Source: Methanomassiliicoccales archaeon UBA147 (lineage in GTDB: Archaea; Thermoplasmatota; Thermoplasmata; SG8-5). Taken from it: a stretch of DNA of 58,832 bases. Shown piece after piece: positions 229 through 24,620 of this stretch (positions are counted from its first letter, which is position 1; each line of letters starts with the position of its first letter). The notes under the pieces are model-generated. The model did no database searches and was not told the DNA's origin. It worked only from the letters and a program-made list of their open reading frames with translations. The position numbers and the translations under genes are program-made. The stretch spans positions 1 to 58,832 of the forward strand of contig DAJR01000022.1 of the NCBI GenBank assembly GCA_002496385.1, written 5' to 3'.

Positions 229-1233
229 TTACACAACGCGCTTCTTCGAGACCTTCTTGGCCGGTTTCGTCTCGATCTTTGAGCCGCAGGCGTAACACAT
301 GACCGCGTCGTTGCTTATCATTGTGCCGCACGATGGGCACGGGATTTCCTCGTCCCCGCCCGCAGCGGCCTCTTCCTCGGCCGGGGCTTCCTCCTCGCCG
401 ATCTGGGTCCCGCAGGCATAACACATGACCGCGTCGTTGCTTATCATTGTGCCGCACGATGGGCAGGGAACCTCGTTCTCGCCGCCGGCAGCGGGTGCCG
501 GCTCTTCGACCTTCTCGGGCTCAGGCTCGGGTGTCGGTTCCGGTGCGGGCTCTTCGACCTTCTCGGCCTTTTTCTTCTCGGCTTTCGGGGCAGGGCTGGT
601 CACGGCGCCTCTCAGTTGTTCCTCCTGGTCAAGGAGCTGCTTCTCCTTCTCCATGAGCTTCTTGCCGTCACTGATGAGCCTCTCCTTGCTGGCGCCAAGC
701 TCCTTCTCTTCCTGGGCCAGGGCTTTCTCCCTAGACAATATCTCTTCTGTTTTGGATTTGAACTGGTCAACGATCGAAGCTAGCTCAGAGGCTGCGCTCT
801 GGGCCTTTTCCTCTGCCTCGATGAACCCCTTCCTCTTCTTGGATATCTCCTCCTCGATCTTCTGGATCTCTTCCTGTCTCTTCAGGATTTCCTTCTCCTG
901 GGATGCGAACTCCTTCTGTCTCCGGGTGATGTCCGCCTCTCTTTCTTTGAGGCCGCTTTCCAGTTGGAGGATGTTCTCCTTCTGGGATTCGAAGCCCGCC
1001 TCCTCCTCCTTGAGTTTGGCCGATTTCTTATCCAGTTCGCTCATTTTGGAGGAAAGTTGGCTTTCCTTGGAACTCAGCTCTTGCTCCTTTGATTCCAGTT
1101 CCTTCTCTTTCGCCTCGAGGGCGCCGGTCTTTTCCTGGATCTCTGCGGTCTTCTGCCTGAGGTCCATCTCTTTCTGCTTGAACTGCTCGGCCTGTTTTTG
1201 CATTACTTCCCAAATTGATGGTTCATCACCCAA
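229..1233 (-). CDS. Coiled-coil protein with two C-terminal zinc ribbons
   Basis: Long E/K/Q heptad-like N-terminus, P/E-rich linker, and two CPSCG..N.A.MCYACG motifs. TTG start. Confidence 0.8.
   Translation of the reverse strand: MGDEPSIWEVMQKQAEQFKQKEMDLRQKTAEIQEKTGALEAKEKELESKEQELSSKESQLSSKMSELDKKSAKLKEEEAGFESQKENILQLESGLKEREADITRRQKEFASQEKEILKRQEEIQKIEEEISKKRKGFIEAEEKAQSAASELASIVDQFKSKTEEILSREKALAQEEKELGASKERLISDGKKLMEKEKQLLDQEEQLRGAVTSPAPKAEKKKAEKVEEPAPEPTPEPEPEKVEEPAPAAGGENEVPCPSCGTMISNDAVMCYACGTQIGEEEAPAEEEAAAGGDEEIPCPSCGTMISNDAVMCYACGSKIETKPAKKVSKKRVV
293..465. repeat. 47-bp identical intragenic duplication (293-339, 419-465) encoding the zinc-ribbon core
   Basis: taacacatgaccgcgtcgttgcttatcattgtgccgcacgatgggca occurs twice, 126 bp apart (in frame). 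Confidence 0.9.
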
Positions 1234-1320: not shown

Positions 1321-2031
1321 CTACTCCCCCGTATCGAATATCGGGCCCAGGACGACTATGCCTTCCTTTCCCACCTCGACCGCGTGTTTTTCCATGCTGT
1401 GCTGCGTCGCCCTCATCTTCTCGACCTGGAGGTATCTCACCAGCTTGCCCCGGTTCCTGTCCAGGCCAAGCATTATTATTCCGTCAACAAGGAAACCCTC
1501 GTTCCCGAGAAGTTGGGATTCCGCGTCGGCCGATCTTTCCATGACTATGAATGCGGTGATATTGTTGTCCCTAAGCATCTTGAAGAAGTAGAACATCCGT
1601 TTGCGCATCTTGTTGACATCCTCCATCAGCGAATAGAGCGCGCCGAGGGAATCCAGGCAGAAAACCGAGAACTTGTCTCCGTATTTCTTCTTGAAATAGA
1701 CAATCATTTTCTCTATGAATTTGATGTAATCTGTCTCGTCGCCCTGATCGACGACCTTGTCCACTTCCCTCAGGTCCGTGAAATCGGAGATTTGCATGTG
1801 CGGTGAAAGCTTGATTCCCAGGCTCTTCATGTTCCTCAGATGGCTCTTCGAGGATTCTTCGAGTGTGCAATAAAGCCCGAACTGGTTCACAGACTCGAGA
1901 TACTTGGACATCAGCGTGTAGCAGAAGCTGGTCTTCATTGAGCCCGGAGGTCCGGTGATGAGCACAACGCTCGGCGGTTCTATGTCGGTCTTGAACACTT
2001 TTTCCATACCGGGAATCGAATTTTTGAACAT
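1321..2031 (-). CDS. KaiC-like/RAD55 family RecA-fold ATPase (single domain)
   Basis: Walker A GPPGSMKTS, Walker B-type FCLDSL, LVDGII and RYLQVEKMR motifs typical of archaeal RAD55/KaiC proteins. Confidence 0.85.
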   Translation of the reverse strand: MFKNSIPGMEKVFKTDIEPPSVVLITGPPGSMKTSFCYTLMSKYLESVNQFGLYCTLEESSKSHLRNMKSLGIKLSPHMQISDFTDLREVDKVVDQGDETDYIKFIEKMIVYFKKKYGDKFSVFCLDSLGALYSLMEDVNKMRKRMFYFFKMLRDNNITAFIVMERSADAESQLLGNEGFLVDGIIMLGLDRNRGKLVRYLQVEKMRATQHSMEKHAVEVGKEGIVVLGPIFDTGE

Positions 2032-2239: not shown

Positions 2240-3823
2240 ATGAAGGTTTGCCCCTCGTGCAGCACAGATTTATCGCTTTTCTCCGCGGACGATGCAGGGG
2301 CAACGCCCGAGGACCCCGACGAATTGAAGAAGGCGCTTCTTTCATCCGGGAACGGCCACCTCACCGACCTTCTCGAGGCCGCCGAGAACGAAACTATTCC
2401 CTCCTCCCCGTCGCCGCCTCCCGCCCAGATTGTTTACGAAGAGTCCGTGGAATGCCCGGCGTGCAATAAGCCCATCCCCGCCGATGCCGCAAAATGTCCG
2501 CACTGCGGCGTGGAGTTCGAGGTCGAGGAGGTTTTCGAGTGCCCGATGTGCGGGACTCTGATAGACATCAATGTCAACAAGTGCCCGAGCTGCAATGCCG
2601 AGTTCGAGACCGAGGAAGCTCAGCCAGAACCCCAACCGGCCCCCCAACCCGCCGAGCCTGTCAAGGCAGAGCCCCCGCCGCCCGAACCGAGGAAGGAGCC
2701 ACTGAGCTTCGCCGAGCGCATGAAGGCCATGAAGGACGAGCCTTCAGCGCCGAAGACGACGCCCCCGTCGGAACCAAAGAGGGAAATGACCTTCGCCGAG
2801 CGCATGAAGGCCATGAAGGATGAGAAAACTATCAGCGAAGCCAAGCCGCCCGCCGCAACCCCCGAGCCTGCGCCCGCCCCTGCACCCGATACAGCACGCG
2901 CCCCCGCCCCCGAAACCGCACTCGCCCCCGCACCGAAAGAAACGGCGCCTGCCACCCCCCCGCCCAAGGGGGAGATGAGCCTTTCCGATAGGGTTAGGTC
3001 TCTAAAGGAAGGGACCCCAGCAGCTGCCAAAGCCGAACCCGCTGCCGCGCACGATGACTCGGCCAAGGAAGGCTTCAAGGAACTTCCGAAATACATCGGC
3101 GAGGTGAAGAAACTCCTTGTCATGGCCAACGAGCTGAAGATTGATGCGTCCGCGAGCAAAGCGCTCATAAACAAGGCCGTGGCCGCCGGCAAATCCCGCG
3201 ACCTTGAAAACGCCATCAAGTTCGTGAAGGACGGCAAATCCGGGCTGGAGAGGGACATCCGGTCATCGATATTGTCAAAGCTGAGAACCTTAGAAACCGC
3301 ACTTTCCATCGAAAAGAAATCCGGGAGGGATGTATCGCGGTTCGAGAATTCGGTTGGCGAGATACGGAAATCGATGGACATTGCAGATTTCCAGACCGCC
3401 TGTGACACCTTGAAGAAGGTGGAAGAGGAGATGCTGAGGACTACCACGACGAACATCTCCCAGGTGGAGCTCGAATCCGTTTCCTGTGCACTCGTCGATG
3501 CGGAGTACCTTCAGCTCAATGTCAGCGAGGCCAGATCATTGTACGATCTCGCAATCCAGGCCAAGGATGACCCGGTCAAATCCTCCCAGTATTCGAAACA
3601 GGCCACCGAGGTTCTCAACAGAATTCTGCCGTCTTATATCGCCGGCGAGATGAGAAAGGCCAAAATCACCCTGAGGGAAATCAAGATGATGAATGTGGAC
3701 ATATCGACCCCCGTCAACCTTCTGAAGGAAGCCAATGACCATGTCCTCAACGGAGACTACAGCGCAGCCCTGGGCGCTGTCAAAAAATTCCGGGAGTTCG
3801 TGGACAGGGCGCAGGGCCAATGA
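2240..3823 (+). CDS. Multi-zinc-ribbon protein with Pro/Ala-rich linker and helical C-terminal domain
   Basis: CPSC at the N-terminus, then CPAC..CPHC and CPMC..CPSC double zinc ribbons, three [LM]S/TF.[ED]R[MV]K.[ML]K[DE] repeats, and an alpha-helical C-terminus. Confidence 0.8.
   Translation: MKVCPSCSTDLSLFSADDAGATPEDPDELKKALLSSGNGHLTDLLEAAENETIPSSPSPPPAQIVYEESVECPACNKPIPADAAKCPHCGVEFEVEEVFECPMCGTLIDINVNKCPSCNAEFETEEAQPEPQPAPQPAEPVKAEPPPPEPRKEPLSFAERMKAMKDEPSAPKTTPPSEPKREMTFAERMKAMKDEKTISEAKPPAATPEPAPAPAPDTARAPAPETALAPAPKETAPATPPPKGEMSLSDRVRSLKEGTPAAAKAEPAAAHDDSAKEGFKELPKYIGEVKKLLVMANELKIDASASKALINKAVAAGKSRDLENAIKFVKDGKSGLERDIRSSILSKLRTLETALSIEKKSGRDVSRFENSVGEIRKSMDIADFQTACDTLKKVEEEMLRTTTTNISQVELESVSCALVDAEYLQLNVSEARSLYDLAIQAKDDPVKSSQYSKQATEVLNRILPSYIAGEMRKAKITLREIKMMNVDISTPVNLLKEANDHVLNGDYSAALGAVKKFREFVDRAQGQ
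2707..2820 (+). repeat. 30-bp identical intragenic repeat (2707-2736, 2791-2820) encoding FAERMKAMK
   Basis: cttcgccgagcgcatgaaggccatgaagga occurs twice, 84 bp apart. Confidence 0.9.
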
Positions 3824-3888: not shown

Positions 3889-6270
3889 CTATTGCGTACG
3901 CCGGGGGTCGGTTCCCAGGAAGCTGATTATCTCCATCTCCCTTTCCAGGATCTTGAGGCCCTGCTCTCCTATTGTCTCCGGTGTCACCGATGTGATGAAA
4001 ATCGCCTCGCTCTCGGAAACCTCGTCGATGAGCCTTCTAAGGAACCTGAGCACGGAGTCGAAGTTGTTATTGCTGATGAGATAATCCAGGCCGTCGATGA
4101 GCAGTATCGATTTTCCCGGCGTGTTCAGGAAATCCTCGATTTTGTAGATTATCCTTTCGAGCACCGGCATCACCCTCGTCTCGGAATCCCCCTCTTTGTC
4201 GGTGAGCCAGAGAATGGCAGCCTCTCCAACGTCGAACTGCTCCTTCACGCGTTTGGGGTTGATCCTTGTCAGTGCCAGGCCCTTCAGCCCCATGTTGAGG
4301 CTGTCCACGAAGTACTCGAAGCATTTCACCGGCCTTTCCTCTTCGATCAGGTAGCTGTGCGAGAGTTTCAGCCGTTCGTCGCGCTTCTGGAGGGGCACCA
4401 GGTCCGAGGTGATTTTCGCCTCTTCCCCCTGTTCCGCCCCTGCGGGGATCTCATCCTTGAGCGCAAGTCTGGCTGTGTCAAGAGTGATGGGCGCCTTCAT
4501 GAGTTCTGAATATGCTTCCAGGGTCTTCAGGGCACCCTCCAGCATGCGGATGTTCTGGGTGTAGCTCCTTGCGATGAAATTCAGGACATCATCGCCTATG
4601 ACCATCCTCTTTGCCTCGGCCTTCTTCCGGAGTATGGCAACCCTCGTTTCGAGATCGGGCGGCTGGATCTCCGTGGCCAGGCCGCCGTCGAACCTTGAAA
4701 TCAGCCTGTCTTTCATGCCGGCCAGCTCCCTAATCGGCCGGTCCGAGGTCATGACGATTTGCCTTCCATCCTTGTGAAGCGCGTTGAAGATGTGGAACAA
4801 CTCCTCCTGAACCGCCTCCTGCCCTGCAATGAACTGGATATCGTCCAGAAGCAGGAAATCCAGGTCCCGGTATTTTTTCTTGAATTCCTTCTTCCTGTTC
4901 CCCCTTATCGATTCTATGAACTCGTTGATGAATTTCTCCGAGGAAATGTACAAAACCCGCTTTGTCGGGTAATTCGCCATGACATAATTGCCGATGGCAT
5001 GAAGGATGTGCGTCTTTCCGAGCCCGGAGGCACTGCAGATGAAAAGAGGATTGTAATGCGAGGAACCGGGCTTCGCCACCGCCGTCGCCGCTGATTGGCT
5101 GAATCTGTTGGACTCGCCCACCACAAAATTGTCGAATGTGAATTCCGGAATGACATTGGATTCTCCGGCCTGCAAGGTCTTGCTGTCAGCCGGCAAATTG
5201 CCGGCACCGCAGGTGGGGCAGGTGGTTTTTCCGTAAAGGTCCGCCCCGCAGACCGTGCATCTTCCGTCTGGAGCTTTCTCCGTGGGAATGATGTCCCCCT
5301 GGCCTTCCAGCTTTTCCTCGAGTTCCTCCTCCAATCCGTTCAGGCCCAGGGTTAGATCGTCCGTTTCGGGCTTTTGAACCGGTGCCGCTGGCTTCGGTTC
5401 GGCCTTCGGCGCGGGGGGTTTTGCCTCGAGCTGCGAGAGCGCTTCCTCTCTCTGCCTTGCCTTCTCCATCTCTATCTTCAGCTTCAGGCCCTGGATTGCG
5501 GCTTCGATTGCTGTTATCTTCGACGGGTTCTTGAGCATGGCCTTTATTCGTTCCACATCGTTGGCGAATTTACCGCAATCGAGGGCTTCCATTTCCTGCC
5601 TGAGGAATTCTGAGCGCGTAATATTGTTCTCGAATTGCTTGAAAGCAAGTTCCGCTTTTGAAGCGTCCTTGTGAATCTCCTCCTGGAGGAATTTCACCAC
5701 ATATCCCCTTGACTGCCACTCCTCCAGTTTGTTCCTCATCTCTTCCGGGACGCCCTCGAGGGCTGCCGGGTGTTGCTGGTCACCGTTGTCGCTCCAGGCA
5801 AGCGAAAAACGTGTCCTTCTTTTCAAAAGCTTTTTTTCACCCGGTCTGACAACGGCCGAATTTGGATATGCCAGGAGTATAGTCGTGATGTCAACCCTCC
5901 CGTGCACCTCCAGGGCGCAGTCATTGTCGTAACTGTCCCCCCATGCGAGTTTGAGCCCCTCCTCCCCGACCTTTGTCGGTATGAAAAGGTTCGCCGAGCG
6001 CCTTCCGTAAATCGCAGCGATCAGGATTCCGTCCTTAATTACCAGATAGCCTTCCGAAATGTAATTGTCGCGTTCCTTCTTCGTGAGCACATAACCCGTG
6101 AAACCGAATTTTTTCAGTTTCTCGAAACTCAGTTCAAGAGCCTTTTGGCTGCCGTGAATAGTGCTTAATATCCTTCCCTCTGGAATGTTCTCGGGGGCTA
6201 TCTGCAACACCTGCCTAACGCTATCTTCCAGGCCGAATCCGGCACAGGGTGAAGCCAAATATTGAACCAT
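3889..6270 (-). CDS. Fusion protein: DUF2226-like N-domain + coiled coil + zinc ribbon + bacterial DnaA-type AAA+ domain + C-terminal DUF835; true start may be the GTG at 6210
   Basis: DnaA domain III hallmarks: FTFDNFVVGESN, YNPLFI, SGLGKTH, LLLDDIQF, QEELFHIFN, TSDR, RLISRF, PPDLETRVAIL, NIRMLEGAL. The C-terminus (GLALTRINP, ILWLT, ILLIDGLDYLISNNNF..VLRFL..L.DEV) is DUF835-like. DnaA domain IV is absent. Confidence 0.85.
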   Translation of the reverse strand: MVQYLASPCAGFGLEDSVRQVLQIAPENIPEGRILSTIHGSQKALELSFEKLKKFGFTGYVLTKKERDNYISEGYLVIKDGILIAAIYGRRSANLFIPTKVGEEGLKLAWGDSYDNDCALEVHGRVDITTILLAYPNSAVVRPGEKKLLKRRTRFSLAWSDNGDQQHPAALEGVPEEMRNKLEEWQSRGYVVKFLQEEIHKDASKAELAFKQFENNITRSEFLRQEMEALDCGKFANDVERIKAMLKNPSKITAIEAAIQGLKLKIEMEKARQREEALSQLEAKPPAPKAEPKPAAPVQKPETDDLTLGLNGLEEELEEKLEGQGDIIPTEKAPDGRCTVCGADLYGKTTCPTCGAGNLPADSKTLQAGESNVIPEFTFDNFVVGESNRFSQSAATAVAKPGSSHYNPLFICSASGLGKTHILHAIGNYVMANYPTKRVLYISSEKFINEFIESIRGNRKKEFKKKYRDLDFLLLDDIQFIAGQEAVQEELFHIFNALHKDGRQIVMTSDRPIRELAGMKDRLISRFDGGLATEIQPPDLETRVAILRKKAEAKRMVIGDDVLNFIARSYTQNIRMLEGALKTLEAYSELMKAPITLDTARLALKDEIPAGAEQGEEAKITSDLVPLQKRDERLKLSHSYLIEEERPVKCFEYFVDSLNMGLKGLALTRINPKRVKEQFDVGEAAILWLTDKEGDSETRVMPVLERIIYKIEDFLNTPGKSILLIDGLDYLISNNNFDSVLRFLRRLIDEVSESEAIFITSVTPETIGEQGLKILEREMEIISFLGTDPRRTQ

Positions 6271-6357
6271 GTTATATAAGTTTTCAGTAAGAGAACAAAC
6301 TTGAAGAATCTTAATATAAAAGTATAAAATGGGGTTCGTGTATAAGGGTGTGATACC

Positions 6358-6759
6358 ATGCTTACCGAAATCAGCGAACTATTGGGAATGGAAGTCTATA
6401 CCGACAAAGGGATCGCCCTCGGCAATGTCGACGACCTCATAATTGAGACAGACAGCCAGAAGATCGACGGGCTATTCATCGGCAACCCGAACCCGCTGCT
6501 CGTCGAGCATTCCAAGCCCGTCAGCGTCCCCTACAGGTGGATAAACAATGTGGGCGACATCATTATCCTCAAGTATTTCCCGAAATTCGTGCAGACCGGC
6601 CCCTCTCCCGAAAGAATTCCCAAGGTCAGGAAACTGGCTGAAGATGTGAAACATTTCGCCCACTCGACCGAGGAGAAGCTCATGCATGCGGAGCATGTGG
6701 CCGCCGACAAGCTGAAGGCCGGCGGCAAGACCCTGTCCGACGAGATCAAGGAGATCTAG
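6358..6759 (+). CDS. PRC-barrel domain protein
   Basis: SELLGMEVYTDKGIALGNVDDLII...VGDIIIL matches the PRC-barrel pattern. Confidence 0.85.
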   Translation: MLTEISELLGMEVYTDKGIALGNVDDLIIETDSQKIDGLFIGNPNPLLVEHSKPVSVPYRWINNVGDIIILKYFPKFVQTGPSPERIPKVRKLAEDVKHFAHSTEEKLMHAEHVAADKLKAGGKTLSDEIKEI

Positions 6760-7715
6760 ATCTTCCTTATTTTTCCCATCATCGGCTCGTATATCAGGCC
6801 TTTATCTAGCAGGCCTTCCGCCGCGGTGTCGAACGCCTCTTTCTTCAGCCCGGCCTTCTTTGCGGCCTTCTCCAGCAAGTCCCAGTCCATTCCGGTCGCT
6901 TTTGGGTCCGAGCCGGTTATGACTTTCAGCAGCTTCTCCTCATCGGCGGTCAGCTCTTCGTCGCTGTCTTCCTTGGGTTCCGGCTCTATGGCCGGAGGCG
7001 CCGGCGGTGTGTCGATGCTCTCCTCGAACTCGTCATAGTCAGCAGCTTCCGTTTCCTCCTTCTCTTCAGCCTCGGGGAGGTCGGGCGTTCCGCCCTCCTC
7101 CGGTATAAGATACCTGAGCGAGTCGATCAGCATCGTATGGTATTTCTCCAGGGGGATATCGCCGTAATGCTCCATGGCGCGGACTATGCCGTCCGCCAGG
7201 CTCTGGCGGTATCCCAGTTTCTCAAGGGCTTCGGCGGTCGGTTCCTCCATCTTCACGGCCTCCGAGACGGCGTCCAGCCGCTGCCTGAGGCCGATGCATC
7301 CGTCCAGAACCCATGCGTCCCTTGCAGATTTCTCGACCGGCATCACGGTCTCGGGCCGCACTGAGATGTACATGACCCCGCCCTCCGGCGAATACACCCT
7401 CACCTTTCCGATTATGGCGGCGAATCCGGGCACTGTCAACTTGGACATGGCCAGCGCCGCATCGGGCTGGAATTGTCCGGCTGAGATGTAGGTCGTTCCA
7501 GTGGGGTCTATCAGCTTCGCCCTCCAGAGCGGCTCCTCGGGCGAGCCGACGTTCTCAAGGTCGGTGATGACGCCGACGATGTAAACACGGTTCACCCTCG
7601 CGCCAAGCGGCGTTATGACATATGTCGGGGCGCGTTCTTCTTCGCCTGTCATGACCAGCGAGGAGTCGTTCAATTCCCCGGCGAACATCCTCCATGCGAC
7701 TTCCCTGGCGTTCAT
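6756..7715 (-). CDS. RPA32-like OB-fold subunit with C-terminal winged helix
   Basis: REVAWRMFAGEL..PTYVITPLGARVNRVYIVGV..DPTGT family signature, acidic linker, GLIYEP wHTH tail. Overlaps the upstream RPA gene by ATGA. Confidence 0.85.
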   Translation of the reverse strand: MNAREVAWRMFAGELNDSSLVMTGEEERAPTYVITPLGARVNRVYIVGVITDLENVGSPEEPLWRAKLIDPTGTTYISAGQFQPDAALAMSKLTVPGFAAIIGKVRVYSPEGGVMYISVRPETVMPVEKSARDAWVLDGCIGLRQRLDAVSEAVKMEEPTAEALEKLGYRQSLADGIVRAMEHYGDIPLEKYHTMLIDSLRYLIPEEGGTPDLPEAEEKEETEAADYDEFEESIDTPPAPPAIEPEPKEDSDEELTADEEKLLKVITGSDPKATGMDWDLLEKAAKKAGLKKEAFDTAAEGLLDKGLIYEPMMGKIRKI

Positions 7716-9019
7716 GTCAATTCCTCCAACATCTTCCTGGCGGACGCCTGCGGTTCAATTTCAAGGAAATCCGTGCCGCTGGCTATCATCATGAGGCCGA
7801 ACTCGTCCGACGTCACGTTCCCGGTGACGCAGACCGGTTTCGCCACCAGCCTGTTGAACAGCTGGTCCTTGATGATGCCCTGGTCCATGGCCTTGGTCGC
7901 TTCCTTCAGGCACTTGTCCAGGGACTTGCCCAACAGTCTTTCCGTGATGTCCTTGTTCATAATGACGTTGAGGGCCCCGGTGCCGTCATCGACGATGGCC
8001 TTGATGCGCAGGTCGGGCTTCCCCTCCTGCTCGCCGTGCACCCGGCAGATGTTCTTCTGCAGGGCGCGGTTGCACTCGGGACACCTGAAGACCAGGCCGC
8101 TTCCCTCCCTCACATCGAGGATGACGCCGTTAATCGCAGCATCGACCATTCCCCCGACCCTGGAGAGATAGTCCACAGTGATTGCCGCAGGTTTCTCGAG
8201 GTCGACGCTGGACGGCATCTTCTCCTTGGACTTCTCCACCGCCGCCGCATCGAAATTCAGCTGGGGCATCCCCCTCCACTTCCTCAGGTAGCCGCTGTTG
8301 ACCTTGACGATGTCGCCCTCCTTGAACTTGGCGACGCCCCAGCATGTGAACGAAACCTTTCCTGTCTCATCCGCCATAATGCCGGACATCACCTCTTTCT
8401 TCTCGCCGCTGACCGTGACCTCCCTTGTCTCGACGGTGAGCATCCTCCCGACCACCGACAGGTTGCCGGTGGCCTCTCCGAGGTCGATGATCTTGCAGGG
8501 CTTTGCAGGCTTGAAATTGCCGCCGCCCTTGAACTCGGGCAGCTCGGATTTGTCCGCCTTGGCGACCTTTCCCCGGTAGCCAACATTCACCTGCGGCTCC
8601 TCCCTGTACTCGGTGATGTAAGCATGTTCTATCCTGATTACATCGCCCTTGCTGAGGGCAAGCTCTCCCTTCTCCCAGATGGTGAACGGCACTGTGCCGC
8701 TCTCGTCGCCGATTATGCCCGAGATGATGGGCTTCTCCTGCCCCTCCTGCTTGATTGTCTTTTCCGTTACGAAAACCACCCTGCAAAGCAGGTTCACGTT
8801 CTTGTCCAGTGGGGTCAGTTCCTTGATGGATTTCTTGTCCCCCTCGGGGGAATAACTCCCTCCGCCGTGCTTCTTGATGACAAGTTTCGCGGCTTCCTCG
8901 GCCCCGAACCTGAACTCCTCGATGTAGTGTTTCAGGTCCTTCTCTATCTCTTTCCTGTCGGCATTCTCGCCGACAGCCTTCGCAATGTCTTTCACGTATT
9001 TTTCATACTTCTCTGCCAT
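7712..9019 (-). CDS. rpa: Replication protein A large subunit (multiple OB folds + zinc finger)
   Basis: Repeated GDESGTVPFTIW / ADETGKVSFTCW / DDGTGAL OB motifs and a CPECNR..CRVHG zinc finger. Confidence 0.9.
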   Translation of the reverse strand: MAEKYEKYVKDIAKAVGENADRKEIEKDLKHYIEEFRFGAEEAAKLVIKKHGGGSYSPEGDKKSIKELTPLDKNVNLLCRVVFVTEKTIKQEGQEKPIISGIIGDESGTVPFTIWEKGELALSKGDVIRIEHAYITEYREEPQVNVGYRGKVAKADKSELPEFKGGGNFKPAKPCKIIDLGEATGNLSVVGRMLTVETREVTVSGEKKEVMSGIMADETGKVSFTCWGVAKFKEGDIVKVNSGYLRKWRGMPQLNFDAAAVEKSKEKMPSSVDLEKPAAITVDYLSRVGGMVDAAINGVILDVREGSGLVFRCPECNRALQKNICRVHGEQEGKPDLRIKAIVDDGTGALNVIMNKDITERLLGKSLDKCLKEATKAMDQGIIKDQLFNRLVAKPVCVTGNVTSDEFGLMMIASGTDFLEIEPQASARKMLEELT

Positions 9020-23474: not shown

Positions 23475-24620
23475 TTAGCCCATTTTTTTCTGGACGAATG
23501 CTTTGAACAAAGGGTGAAACAATCGGTATTTGCCTCTGGACGTTCTCAGGACAATTTCCTTTTCTACAAGCCTGGTTAGGTGCGTGCCCCTCTTCGACAT
23601 TTTTGCGCGAGACTGGATCTCAGAAAATGACAGCGTATCTTCTTTGCTCTTAGCAAAAGCAAACAATATCTTCTTCTCTTCTTCCGATGCCCGGTCCAAC
23701 ATGGGCCCGAAAATGTCGTTTCCCAGAATATCTACAATTACTGGCATGATTGCGCTAAGCTTCTTCGGGGTCAATTTTCCTTTTCCGTTCAGCTCCCGAA
23801 AGGCAGAGAAGCATACTGCTTTCAGGATGTATGGGTGGCCCTCGCTGAGGCGGTGGATTTCGGCCTGGGCTTCCTTTGATATGCTGAAATCGGAAATCTC
23901 CCTGATGGGCAATGTCATCGCTTCCGCGCTTTCCTGTTCCGTGAACTCTTCGAGAGTTATCCGGCGGAAGAACCTGGCAGTCGGAGAATATAGTTTGGCC
24001 GATGTGTCATAAAAAATCTTCTTCCCGCTGAGAATGGCCATAATTTTGCATCCGCTTCTCGGAAGCGCCTGGAAAACATTCCTGATAGTCTCGACCACCT
24101 TGAAGAGTTCCTGCTTATCCAGAAACTCCAGGTTATCGATCATTATGATGACTATCCGGTCCTTATCGGCTATGGCTTCCCACAATGATTGCAAGGTTGA
24201 TTCGAAACGTATCGGTGTGTACCCGGCATTTCCCTCGTTCTGTTCAGCGATCCGGTCCAGCCGGGGAGATTTCATCTCTCGGATGCCTCCAGCAGGCAAA
24301 CCGAGTTTGGGATATTCGCGTAATATCTGGTGGAGAAACTTCTGTACAATGGCATGAAGGACTGCATCGGATGTTTGGCCGCTTTGCACATCAATGATGA
24401 AGGAGATTGCACCGAATTCTTTTGAAGCGATTTCCTGGGCCTTCAGGAGGAGCGCGGTCTTCCCGATTCCCCACTCACCGACCACTGCGATATTCAGAGA
24501 CTTTGCATGTGAAGTGTACTTGAATGCTTCCACCATACTCTGGAGAACCTGTTTTCTTCCCGCAAAATTAGGGGGTTCGACGGGATATGCCGGCATATAT
24601 GGATTGATGGTATCGAGCAT
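23475..24620 (-). CDS. Stand-alone AAA/STAND-like ATPase with C-terminal winged helix (unrelated to array copies)
   Basis: NPY..P..FAGR, GEWGIGKT, IMIDNLE, SEGHPY, C-terminal GKYRLFHPLF wHTH-type end. Confidence 0.8.
   Translation of the reverse strand: MLDTINPYMPAYPVEPPNFAGRKQVLQSMVEAFKYTSHAKSLNIAVVGEWGIGKTALLLKAQEIASKEFGAISFIIDVQSGQTSDAVLHAIVQKFLHQILREYPKLGLPAGGIREMKSPRLDRIAEQNEGNAGYTPIRFESTLQSLWEAIADKDRIVIIMIDNLEFLDKQELFKVVETIRNVFQALPRSGCKIMAILSGKKIFYDTSAKLYSPTARFFRRITLEEFTEQESAEAMTLPIREISDFSISKEAQAEIHRLSEGHPYILKAVCFSAFRELNGKGKLTPKKLSAIMPVIVDILGNDIFGPMLDRASEEEKKILFAFAKSKEDTLSFSEIQSRAKMSKRGTHLTRLVEKEIVLRTSRGKYRLFHPLFKAFVQKKMG

Follow-up and report, generated by a model that had tools for sequence, protein, structure and literature searches.

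An archaeal protein encoded by Methanomassiliicoccales archaeon UBA147 joins a DnaA-type AAA+ core to a C-terminal DUF835 domain. The gene for this protein, P0001, lies on contig DAJR01000022.1, in a stretch of 58,832 nucleotides (positions 1-58,832; hereafter the window, to whose numbering the coordinates below refer unless another locus is named). In textbooks DnaA is the initiator of bacterial replication, with an AAA+ core that is seen as a DNA-melting filament. Bacterial DnaAs resemble one another little more than they resemble the P0001 core, which is found in a conserved chromosomal gene of a large group of archaea that use Orc1/Cdc6. We consider it probable that the fusion is a cytoplasmic ATP-dependent assembly switch in signalling and not a replication initiator.

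The gene and the regions of its product (in amino acids, aa) are as follows.

3889..6270, (-): fusion gene P0001; one open frame of 793 aa comprising N-domain, helical module, linker, zinc ribbon, DnaA domain III and DUF835
5836..6210, (-): N-domain, aa 21-145; alpha/beta, AlphaFold2 predicted local distance difference test (pLDDT) >90; weakly DUF2226-like
5455..5748, (-): helical module of ~95 aa, aa 175-272; signature WxSxGYxV...FxxFE...LK(N/D)PxKIxAIEA
5266..5454, (-): linker, aa 273-335; variable, low-complexity and P/A/E-rich in the family alignment
5200..5265, (-): zinc ribbon CxxC...CPxC, aa 336-357; from the sequence and a hidden Markov model (HMM)
4435..5160, (-): DnaA domain III (AAA+ core and lid), aa 371-612; SASGLGKT, Walker B D476/D477, sensor I SDR, R522/R526 and R575
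3916..4374, (-): DUF835, aa 633-785; inactivated KaiC/ArlH/RecA-like domain with EERPVK at the P-loop position

The central segment is a DnaA-type AAA+ core

The original prediction, made from the letters of the sequence, described a DnaA-type segment of ~210 aa in this protein. The segment is indeed of DnaA type but it is longer, about 242 aa, since the alignment to Bacillus subtilis DnaA runs without a gap over aa 371-612. Pfam Bac_DnaA (PF00308) matched aa 376-533 with an E-value of 3.2e-64, and the score with the NCBIfam DnaA equivalog model TIGR00362, 348.9 bits, exceeded the trusted cut-off of that model (343.9). The scores of the Hda, IstB and DnaC models were 108.7, 47 and 22 bits, respectively, and the assignment to DnaA rather than to Orc1/Cdc6, Hda, DnaC or IstB was thus upheld. 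Among solved structures the best match was B. subtilis DnaA (8btg; E 1.3e-80), followed by the DnaAs of T. maritima and A. aeolicus, with Hda far behind. Identity between the core and bacterial DnaAs was 48-56%.

All the motifs that had been quoted were found: a Walker A motif CSASGLGKT at about aa 411-419, with the predicted change of its first Gly to Ser; box VII LISRF, with R522 and R526; sensor II NIRMLEG, with R575; and CTVCG...CPTCG at aa 337-354, which belongs to the zinc ribbon (CxxC...CPxC, likewise as described). To assess how these positions are maintained we counted residues in family members from 73 species. G416, G418 and T420 of Walker A, the two Asp residues of Walker B and the sensor II Arg were kept in 100% of them, K419 in 72/73 and the Arg finger (B. 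subtilis R264) in 67/73. The first position of Walker A was Ser in 45, Gly in 24 and Ala in 4.

Residues of B. subtilis DnaA that are essential for the filament interface or for binding single-stranded DNA (ssDNA; I190 and K222) have been reported (PMC6669920). At the filament-interface positions, R202 was Arg in 73/73 (P0001 itself has K464), F218 was kept in 68/73 and L269 in 71/73, and R321 was Arg or Lys in 64/73. On the other hand, both ssDNA-binding positions were variable: E, I, R, N, A and others occurred at I190, and M, N, R, Q, S, K and others at K222. At the corresponding sites (B. subtilis I190/K222; E. coli V211/K243/R245) P0001 has I452, but Q484 and A486. The suggestion that domain III might retain ssDNA binding is therefore not borne out by the family. 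Judged by the conserved residues, the core is very probably catalytically competent and capable of DnaA-like protomer contacts.

Compared to bacterial domain III (8btg/8bv3, 2z4r and 1l8q/2hcb), the core and lid of P0001 align gaplessly over 242 aa. They keep both Walker motifs, both sensors, the arginines of box VII and the majority of the filament-interface residues. In contrast, the ssDNA residues are not conserved, domains I and IV are missing, and the core is flanked by the N-domain, helical module, zinc ribbon and DUF835 in an Orc1/Cdc6 host. Neither domain IV (Bac_DnaA_C/PF08299) nor domain I (DnaA_N/PF11638) had a Pfam match in P0001. A domain IV HMM matched 129 canonical DnaAs and 0 archaeal proteins, and no domain IV was seen among 20 proteins inspected from the wider set of PF00308 proteins in Thermoplasmatota. 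Hda, DnaC/DnaI and IstB are likewise modules of the initiator AAA+ clade that have no DnaA-box reader; however, they are far less similar to P0001 (108.7 bits or less, compared to 348.9), Hda nests inside canonical DnaA, and the partners of these proteins (clamp, helicase and transposase) are absent from the P0001 locus.

DUF835 occupies the place of domain IV

DUF835 (Pfam PF05763) was matched over aa 650-779 with an E-value of 8e-26 and 90.8 bits, compared to a gathering score of 33.1. It thus stands where DnaA has domain IV, as had been stated. The structural model of the domain (pLDDT 91.7) had ArlH/FlaH (4yds) as its best PDB match in a Foldseek search (E 2e-5), followed by PH0250, KaiC CI, RecA and Rho. 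The loop after its first strand reads EERPVK and is without the GxxGxGK[ST] pattern. On the strength of this model, DUF835 has a predicted KaiC/ArlH/RecA-like fold that is without a functional P-loop.

Archaeal response regulators use DUF835 as an output domain, and it has been listed as an inactivated KaiC (iKaiC; PMC5847659). The C-terminus of P0001 resembles these outputs (REC-DUF835, PMC5847659) and ArlH/FlaH (4yds) in its domain, its ArlH/KaiC/RecA fold, its missing P-loop and the KaiC-like genes nearby. It differs in what precedes that domain: the signalling proteins have a receiver, PAS or membrane sensor as input, whereas P0001 has a DnaA-type AAA+ core. No archaellum genes were found in the window. 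Nine other DUF835 proteins are encoded in the UBA147 genome, one of them in an open frame of 2929 aa.

N-terminal regions

Between the N-domain and the zinc ribbon a coiled coil had been proposed. This was replaced by a folded helical module of ~95 aa followed by the low-complexity linker. An HMM of the module scores P0001 at 121 bits. P0001 has one copy, some fusions have two, and archaeal relatives of 1181-1423 aa have 5 to 8 (mostly 7-8) in tandem. The zinc ribbon was found by a custom HMM in about half of the family.

The N-domain had been called DUF2226-like. A recurring likeness was observed, in that DUF2226 (PF09987) was the sole recurring Pfam match, in 9/17 family members, with a best E-value of 2.8e-5 for the N-domain alone; all matches, however, fell below the gathering score (22 bits, compared to a best score of 17.4 bits with a longer construct). 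P0001 itself gave E 0.21 and 11.5 bits, and the matches span only positions 9-113 of the profile. These scores hint that the N-domain resembles DUF2226 without being a member of it. No structural relative in the PDB fell below E 0.17 (Foldseek), either for the N-domain or for the N-domain with the helical module. We also considered PATAN/DUF4388 (PF14332). The expected motif TG..v...G.vyf..G lined up in the hhalign comparison, but the match was not significant (Prob 1%, E 0.055, with a shallow profile of four sequences) and there was no Pfam PATAN/DUF4388 match; we treat it as a hint only. In the UBA147 genome there is one more N-domain protein (842-aa frame, C38:56865-59393, (+)) and one more helical-module protein (409-aa frame, C16:2740-3969, (-)), both without any Pfam match.

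The true start of P0001 may be the GTG at 6210 (V21), which would give 773 aa, because homologues begin 20 residues after the ATG at 6270 and a TATA-like TTATATAA immediately precedes that ATG. This element, in the region 6190-6290, directly abuts the annotated start codon.

The closest kin are other DnaA-like proteins without domain IV

An exhaustive search of representative sequences for the core returned canonical DnaAs, at 48-54% identity, and proteins of ~640 aa with two cores, the latter with the top scores. Several of these two-core proteins are from Gemmatimonadota. Two Gemmatimonadota loci encode, in order, CheA, CheC, TPR, PATAN, TPR+Roadblock, two further Roadblock-like proteins and a small GTPase, and continue with the [core-helical-core] protein, PATAN+TPR, CheR, CheD, CheB, CheW and CheW. 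The inter-core region of the tandem proteins matched the archaeal helical module in an hhalign comparison that omitted the four closest sequences (Prob 97.7, E 1.7e-12, 82 columns), and the reciprocal HMM recovered the archaeal repeats.

The tandem DnaA-like ATPases (for example RMH68997.1, uncharacterised) share with P0001 the missing domain IV, a ~95-aa module before the core, a position outside canonical DnaA and a signalling-type gene context. They differ in carrying two cores per chain and in lacking DUF835, the zinc ribbon and the N-domain. The archaeal proteins have KaiC-like and zinc-ribbon proteins as partners, the tandem ones Che proteins, a small GTPase, Roadblock and PATAN/TPR proteins.

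The position outside canonical DnaA comes from a tree of 68 cores (LG+C20). Canonical DnaAs with domain IV (including E. coli DnaA, with Hda nested) split from the others with support of 88/92 and in 94% of bootstrap trees. The archaeal and Gemmatimonadota cores lacking domain IV all lay opposite canonical DnaA, unresolved among themselves, and ten fusions, P0001 among them, formed a robust clade (99/94). DnaC lay far outside canonical DnaA; a root placed by DnaC is unreliable, and the sample of canonical DnaAs is biased to best hits. A second origin of the L036 and L039 fusions inside canonical DnaA appeared only in a quick LG+G4 tree and disappeared under the mixture model.

Because the core lies outside canonical DnaA and the helical module is common with Gemmatimonadota, we take the nearest kin of the fusion, as far as sequence can tell, to be other non-initiator DnaA-like proteins. 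Of the earlier idea of a horizontally acquired initiator, the DnaA-type core stands, but its placement (88/92, 94%) and the module common with the Gemmatimonadota tandem proteins make a freshly borrowed initiator less likely. We propose, on the same two grounds, that P0001 belongs to a putative family of non-initiator DnaA-like switches with a helical module and a DnaA core and without domain IV. This kinship suggests a family of DnaA-derived or DnaA-sister ATP switches outside replication.

The archaeal proteins with this core show several architectures. In Thermoplasmatota there are N-domain, helical modules, core and DUF835; others have the N-domain, about seven to eight helical modules and the core, mostly with a C-terminal double zinc ribbon. 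There are also TPR proteins with the core and short proteins in which an unknown N-terminal region precedes the core. Since a double zinc ribbon is fused to the core in some lineages and zinc-ribbon proteins are encoded next to it in others, the two are probably linked in function. At locus L032 (G021:C1:317500-324500) an 813-aa protein joins the DnaA core to a T2SSE (PilB/ArlI-type) ATPase. The flanking genes encode a DUF7289 protein and the T2SSF platform protein, and the locus is thereby a type IV filament operon whose motor ATPase bears a DnaA-like head.

A broader interpretation, which we hold tentatively and with more doubt than belief, is that helical module and DnaA core form an ancient and hitherto unrecognised class of AAA+ signalling switches, a sister of the initiator rather than a recent copy, common to Thermoplasmatota and Gemmatimonadota. 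In archaea and bacteria alike, an ATP-gated DnaA-type filament or spiral would then be the scaffold between sensing and a machine at the pole or surface of the cell. If this ancient class exists, the archaeal units might perhaps be coupled to KaiC/RadB-type ATPases, whether dead or live, and also to zinc-ribbon/TPR partners and to ATPases of type IV filaments. It is conceivable, at a similarly low level of confidence, that the Gemmatimonadota units are coupled to Che and MglA/Roadblock/PATAN polarity modules.

Host and distribution

The host genome (1.99 Mb, 66 contigs, 86% complete) contains a single PF00308 gene and, in line with the expectation that this archaeon uses Orc1/Cdc6, two Orc1/Cdc6 genes (438 and 245 bits), located on contigs other than that of P0001. 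Orthologues of P0001 were present in 45/61 relatives (7/8 within the genus, 9/9 in the remainder of the order, and many families across the class), and the full fusion architecture is kept at 32-79% identity. Several small, complete genomes from this class lacked the orthologue. The fusion gene is single-copy and vertically inherited.

A word-based search found ~50 clusters with the P0001 architecture (680-790 aa). The named ones are from metagenome-assembled genomes (MAGs) of Thermoplasmata, Thermoplasmatota or Euryarchaeota and are labelled "DnaA/Hda family protein" or "DUF835 domain-containing protein". Scanning one genome per species gave 270 confirmed loci, and the best 80 of these all come from MAGs of uncultured Thermoplasmata, of Thermoplasmatota or with a Methanomassiliicoccales label. 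None of the carriers seen is an isolate in culture. PF00308 itself was detected at E < 1e-20 in 42/301 sampled Thermoplasmatota genomes, in up to nine copies per genome. The PF00308 signals in archaeal control genomes were weak AAA+ cross-hits and were gone at this threshold.

Gene neighbourhood

The genes around P0001 in the window are as follows.

229..1233, (-): P0123, coiled-coil protein with a terminal double zinc ribbon; start codon uncertain; from the neighbourhood
1321..2031, (-): P0124, KaiC-like ATPase, 236 aa, Walker A GPPGSMKT; from profile and neighbourhood
2240..3823, (+): P0122, partner, 527 aa, convergent; three zinc ribbons, P/A-rich linker and C-terminal helical TPR-like domain
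6358..6759, (+): PRC-barrel protein, divergent; neighbours the fusion in close relatives only

Counts of neighbours refer to the best 80 of the 270 species-level loci. A partner orthologue lay tail-to-tail with the fusion in 76/80, and the two are tightly co-inherited. The distance between the two genes ranged from -16 to +478 nt and was usually <35 nt, with overlap of the stop codons in many cases. The partner orthologues have two or three zinc ribbons, a linker and the helical domain. We consider this domain TPR-like because a jackhmmer search started from it drifted into a TPR-DnaA-core protein and because the convergent partner at locus L035 has true TPR repeats. That partner (L035 3426-5453, (-)) also has an HhH motif and five double zinc ribbons. 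A repeat in the partner linker, FAERMKAMKDE, was considered as a conserved docking peptide and rejected, as it occurs in 10/76 orthologues only, all of them close relatives.

A KaiC-like orthologue was found 1.4-2 kb downstream of the fusion, on the same strand, in 41/80 species, and the gene for the coiled-coil double-zinc-ribbon protein came next in 35/80. The Walker A motif of P0124 is unusual in that Met replaces the invariant Gly preceding Lys; the catalytic LEE is retained. Other loci carry different genes in the same operon after the fusion: a ~230-aa Rad51/RadB/KaiC-like ATPase in L036 (1576-2268, (-)) and L039 (1347-2030, (-)), and a Ras-family GTPase protein in L033 (1112-2353, (-)). 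In L031 and L041 the two parts are encoded separately, by a DnaA-core gene and a DUF835 gene that follows it; the DUF835 protein at L041 (1361-2179, (-)) carries a SAP domain.

Giant surface proteins (1900-2600 aa, CARDB) are encoded downstream of the KaiC/coiled-coil zinc-ribbon pair in L002 (14267-18301) and L004 (13823-18076), that of L002 also with Pilin_N and Big_5. The UBA147 window begins too near the contig end to reveal such genes. On the other side of P0001, the membership of the PRC-barrel protein in the system is doubtful, as its adjacency is limited to close relatives. Beyond it, 6756-9019 (-) encodes an RPA-like protein (435 aa, two or three OB folds) and then a 319-aa protein. 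This pair also adjoins the fusion in L002; it does not in more distant relatives.

A probable assembly switch and the alternatives to it

The most likely explanation for these data is the ATP-dependent oligomer switch with a KaiC link that the original prediction had favoured: the catalytic and filament-interface residues are kept, and a KaiC-like gene is nearby in 41/80 species. In such a switch, ATP binding would drive DnaA-like head-to-tail oligomerisation, and the dead KaiC domain would anchor the resulting oligomer to an ATPase ring of the KaiC/ArlH type. An input may be received, or the partner protein bound, by the N-domain, helical module and zinc ribbon, with ATP hydrolysis resetting the system. 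What the switch controls is probably a machine of the cell surface, of motility or of polarity; this is the weakest step.

Several observations weigh against this interpretation. The first position of Walker A is Ser in 45/73 family members and the Arg finger is missing in 6/73. The putative oligomerisation and KaiC docking are read solely from conserved residues and neighbouring genes, only about half of the species have the KaiC-like gene adjacent, and the fusion and its partner, being convergent, are not one transcript. Some partners contain motifs of DNA-binding type (HhH in L035, SAP in L041), and in the UBA147 window the RPA-like gene is 1.4 kb from the fusion.

It could be speculated from the HhH and SAP motifs and the RPA-like neighbour that the protein acts on DNA, in replication control or a chromosome transaction, with DNA contacted in trans through zinc-ribbon, HhH or SAP partners under the control of the KaiC-like protein. 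These three observations keep a DNA-related role alive. It would also suit the core, which retains the whole initiator-type fold gaplessly at 50-56% identity to initiator DnaAs, the zinc ribbons, which are capable of nucleic acid binding, the presence of the RPA-like OB-fold gene in L002 as well, and gyrB and gyrA, which lie within 5 kb in L006. We nevertheless regard it as unlikely. The I190 and K222 positions are not conserved, domains I and IV are absent, and across the family the genes for RPA and gyrase are not maintained as neighbours. Orc1/Cdc6 is on other contigs, and the fusion is not beside dnaN or oriC; its neighbours are zinc-ribbon, KaiC-like and PRC-barrel genes. The relatives of the helical module are found in chemotaxis/polarity and type IV filament operons. 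Finally, the family is missing from several complete genomes of the class and is therefore not essential for replication there.

Another possibility is an anti-virus or conflict system in which a STAND/AAA+-type NTPase sensor works with an effector partner. Weak Pfam side-hits to NACHT, AAA_22 and ATPase_2 and the eight AAA_16+TPR STAND-like genes in the window point in this direction, but we think it very improbable: the gene is single-copy, shows vertical descent through genus, family, order and a large part of the class, and keeps a fixed synteny with housekeeping genes, in all of which it differs from a defence island; nuclease, protease and other effector domains are absent; and the STAND array is 11 kb off and of different G+C. 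The idea that P0001 is an artefact, either a mis-binned or mis-assembled bacterial fragment or a decaying pseudogene, draws on the automatic name given by JGI to an identical protein, "chromosomal replication initiator protein DnaA". It is refuted by the intact reading frame, the 32-79% identity of orthologues along the full length, the occurrence of the same fusion among archaeal genes on contigs as long as 956 kb, and the 270 confirmed loci, the best 80 of which are all from Thermoplasmatota MAGs. A chimeric contig, which had been raised as a concern, is excluded by synteny: the order dCTP deaminase, HAD, Trm5, methylase, RPA-like, PRC, fusion, partner and KaiC is repeated on a 633-kb contig of a relative.

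Significance of the fusion

The literature searched contained no paper describing a DnaA-core/DUF835 fusion, none joining DUF835 with DnaA and none mentioning DUF2226, and nothing relevant on DnaA in Thermoplasmatota or PF00308 in archaea. As far as we have seen, the shared helical module, the kept filament interface set against the lost ssDNA contacts, the tail-to-tail partner in 76/80 species and the placement outside canonical DnaA are new. If the assembly-switch interpretation is true, the initiator AAA+ clade would have a broader range of uses than is known so far, and the archaeal KaiC/iKaiC network, which is poorly understood, would gain a concrete new input module. It would also correct the automatic initiator label, which could mislead origin prediction in archaeal MAGs.

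Other features of the window

Eight tandem paralogues of ~900-1090 aa are encoded at 17346-43012 (-). The two that were scanned have an N-terminal AAA_16 NTPase and a C-terminal TPR region and are STAND-like. The G+C content of the array is 0.40-0.54, compared to about 0.56 in its flanks, and similar genes occur on contigs C6 and C21. Inside the array, 23475-24620 (-) encodes a 381-aa protein with matches to an AAA_16/KAP-type NTPase and, at its C-terminus, to AbiEi_4 (antitoxin-like HTH).

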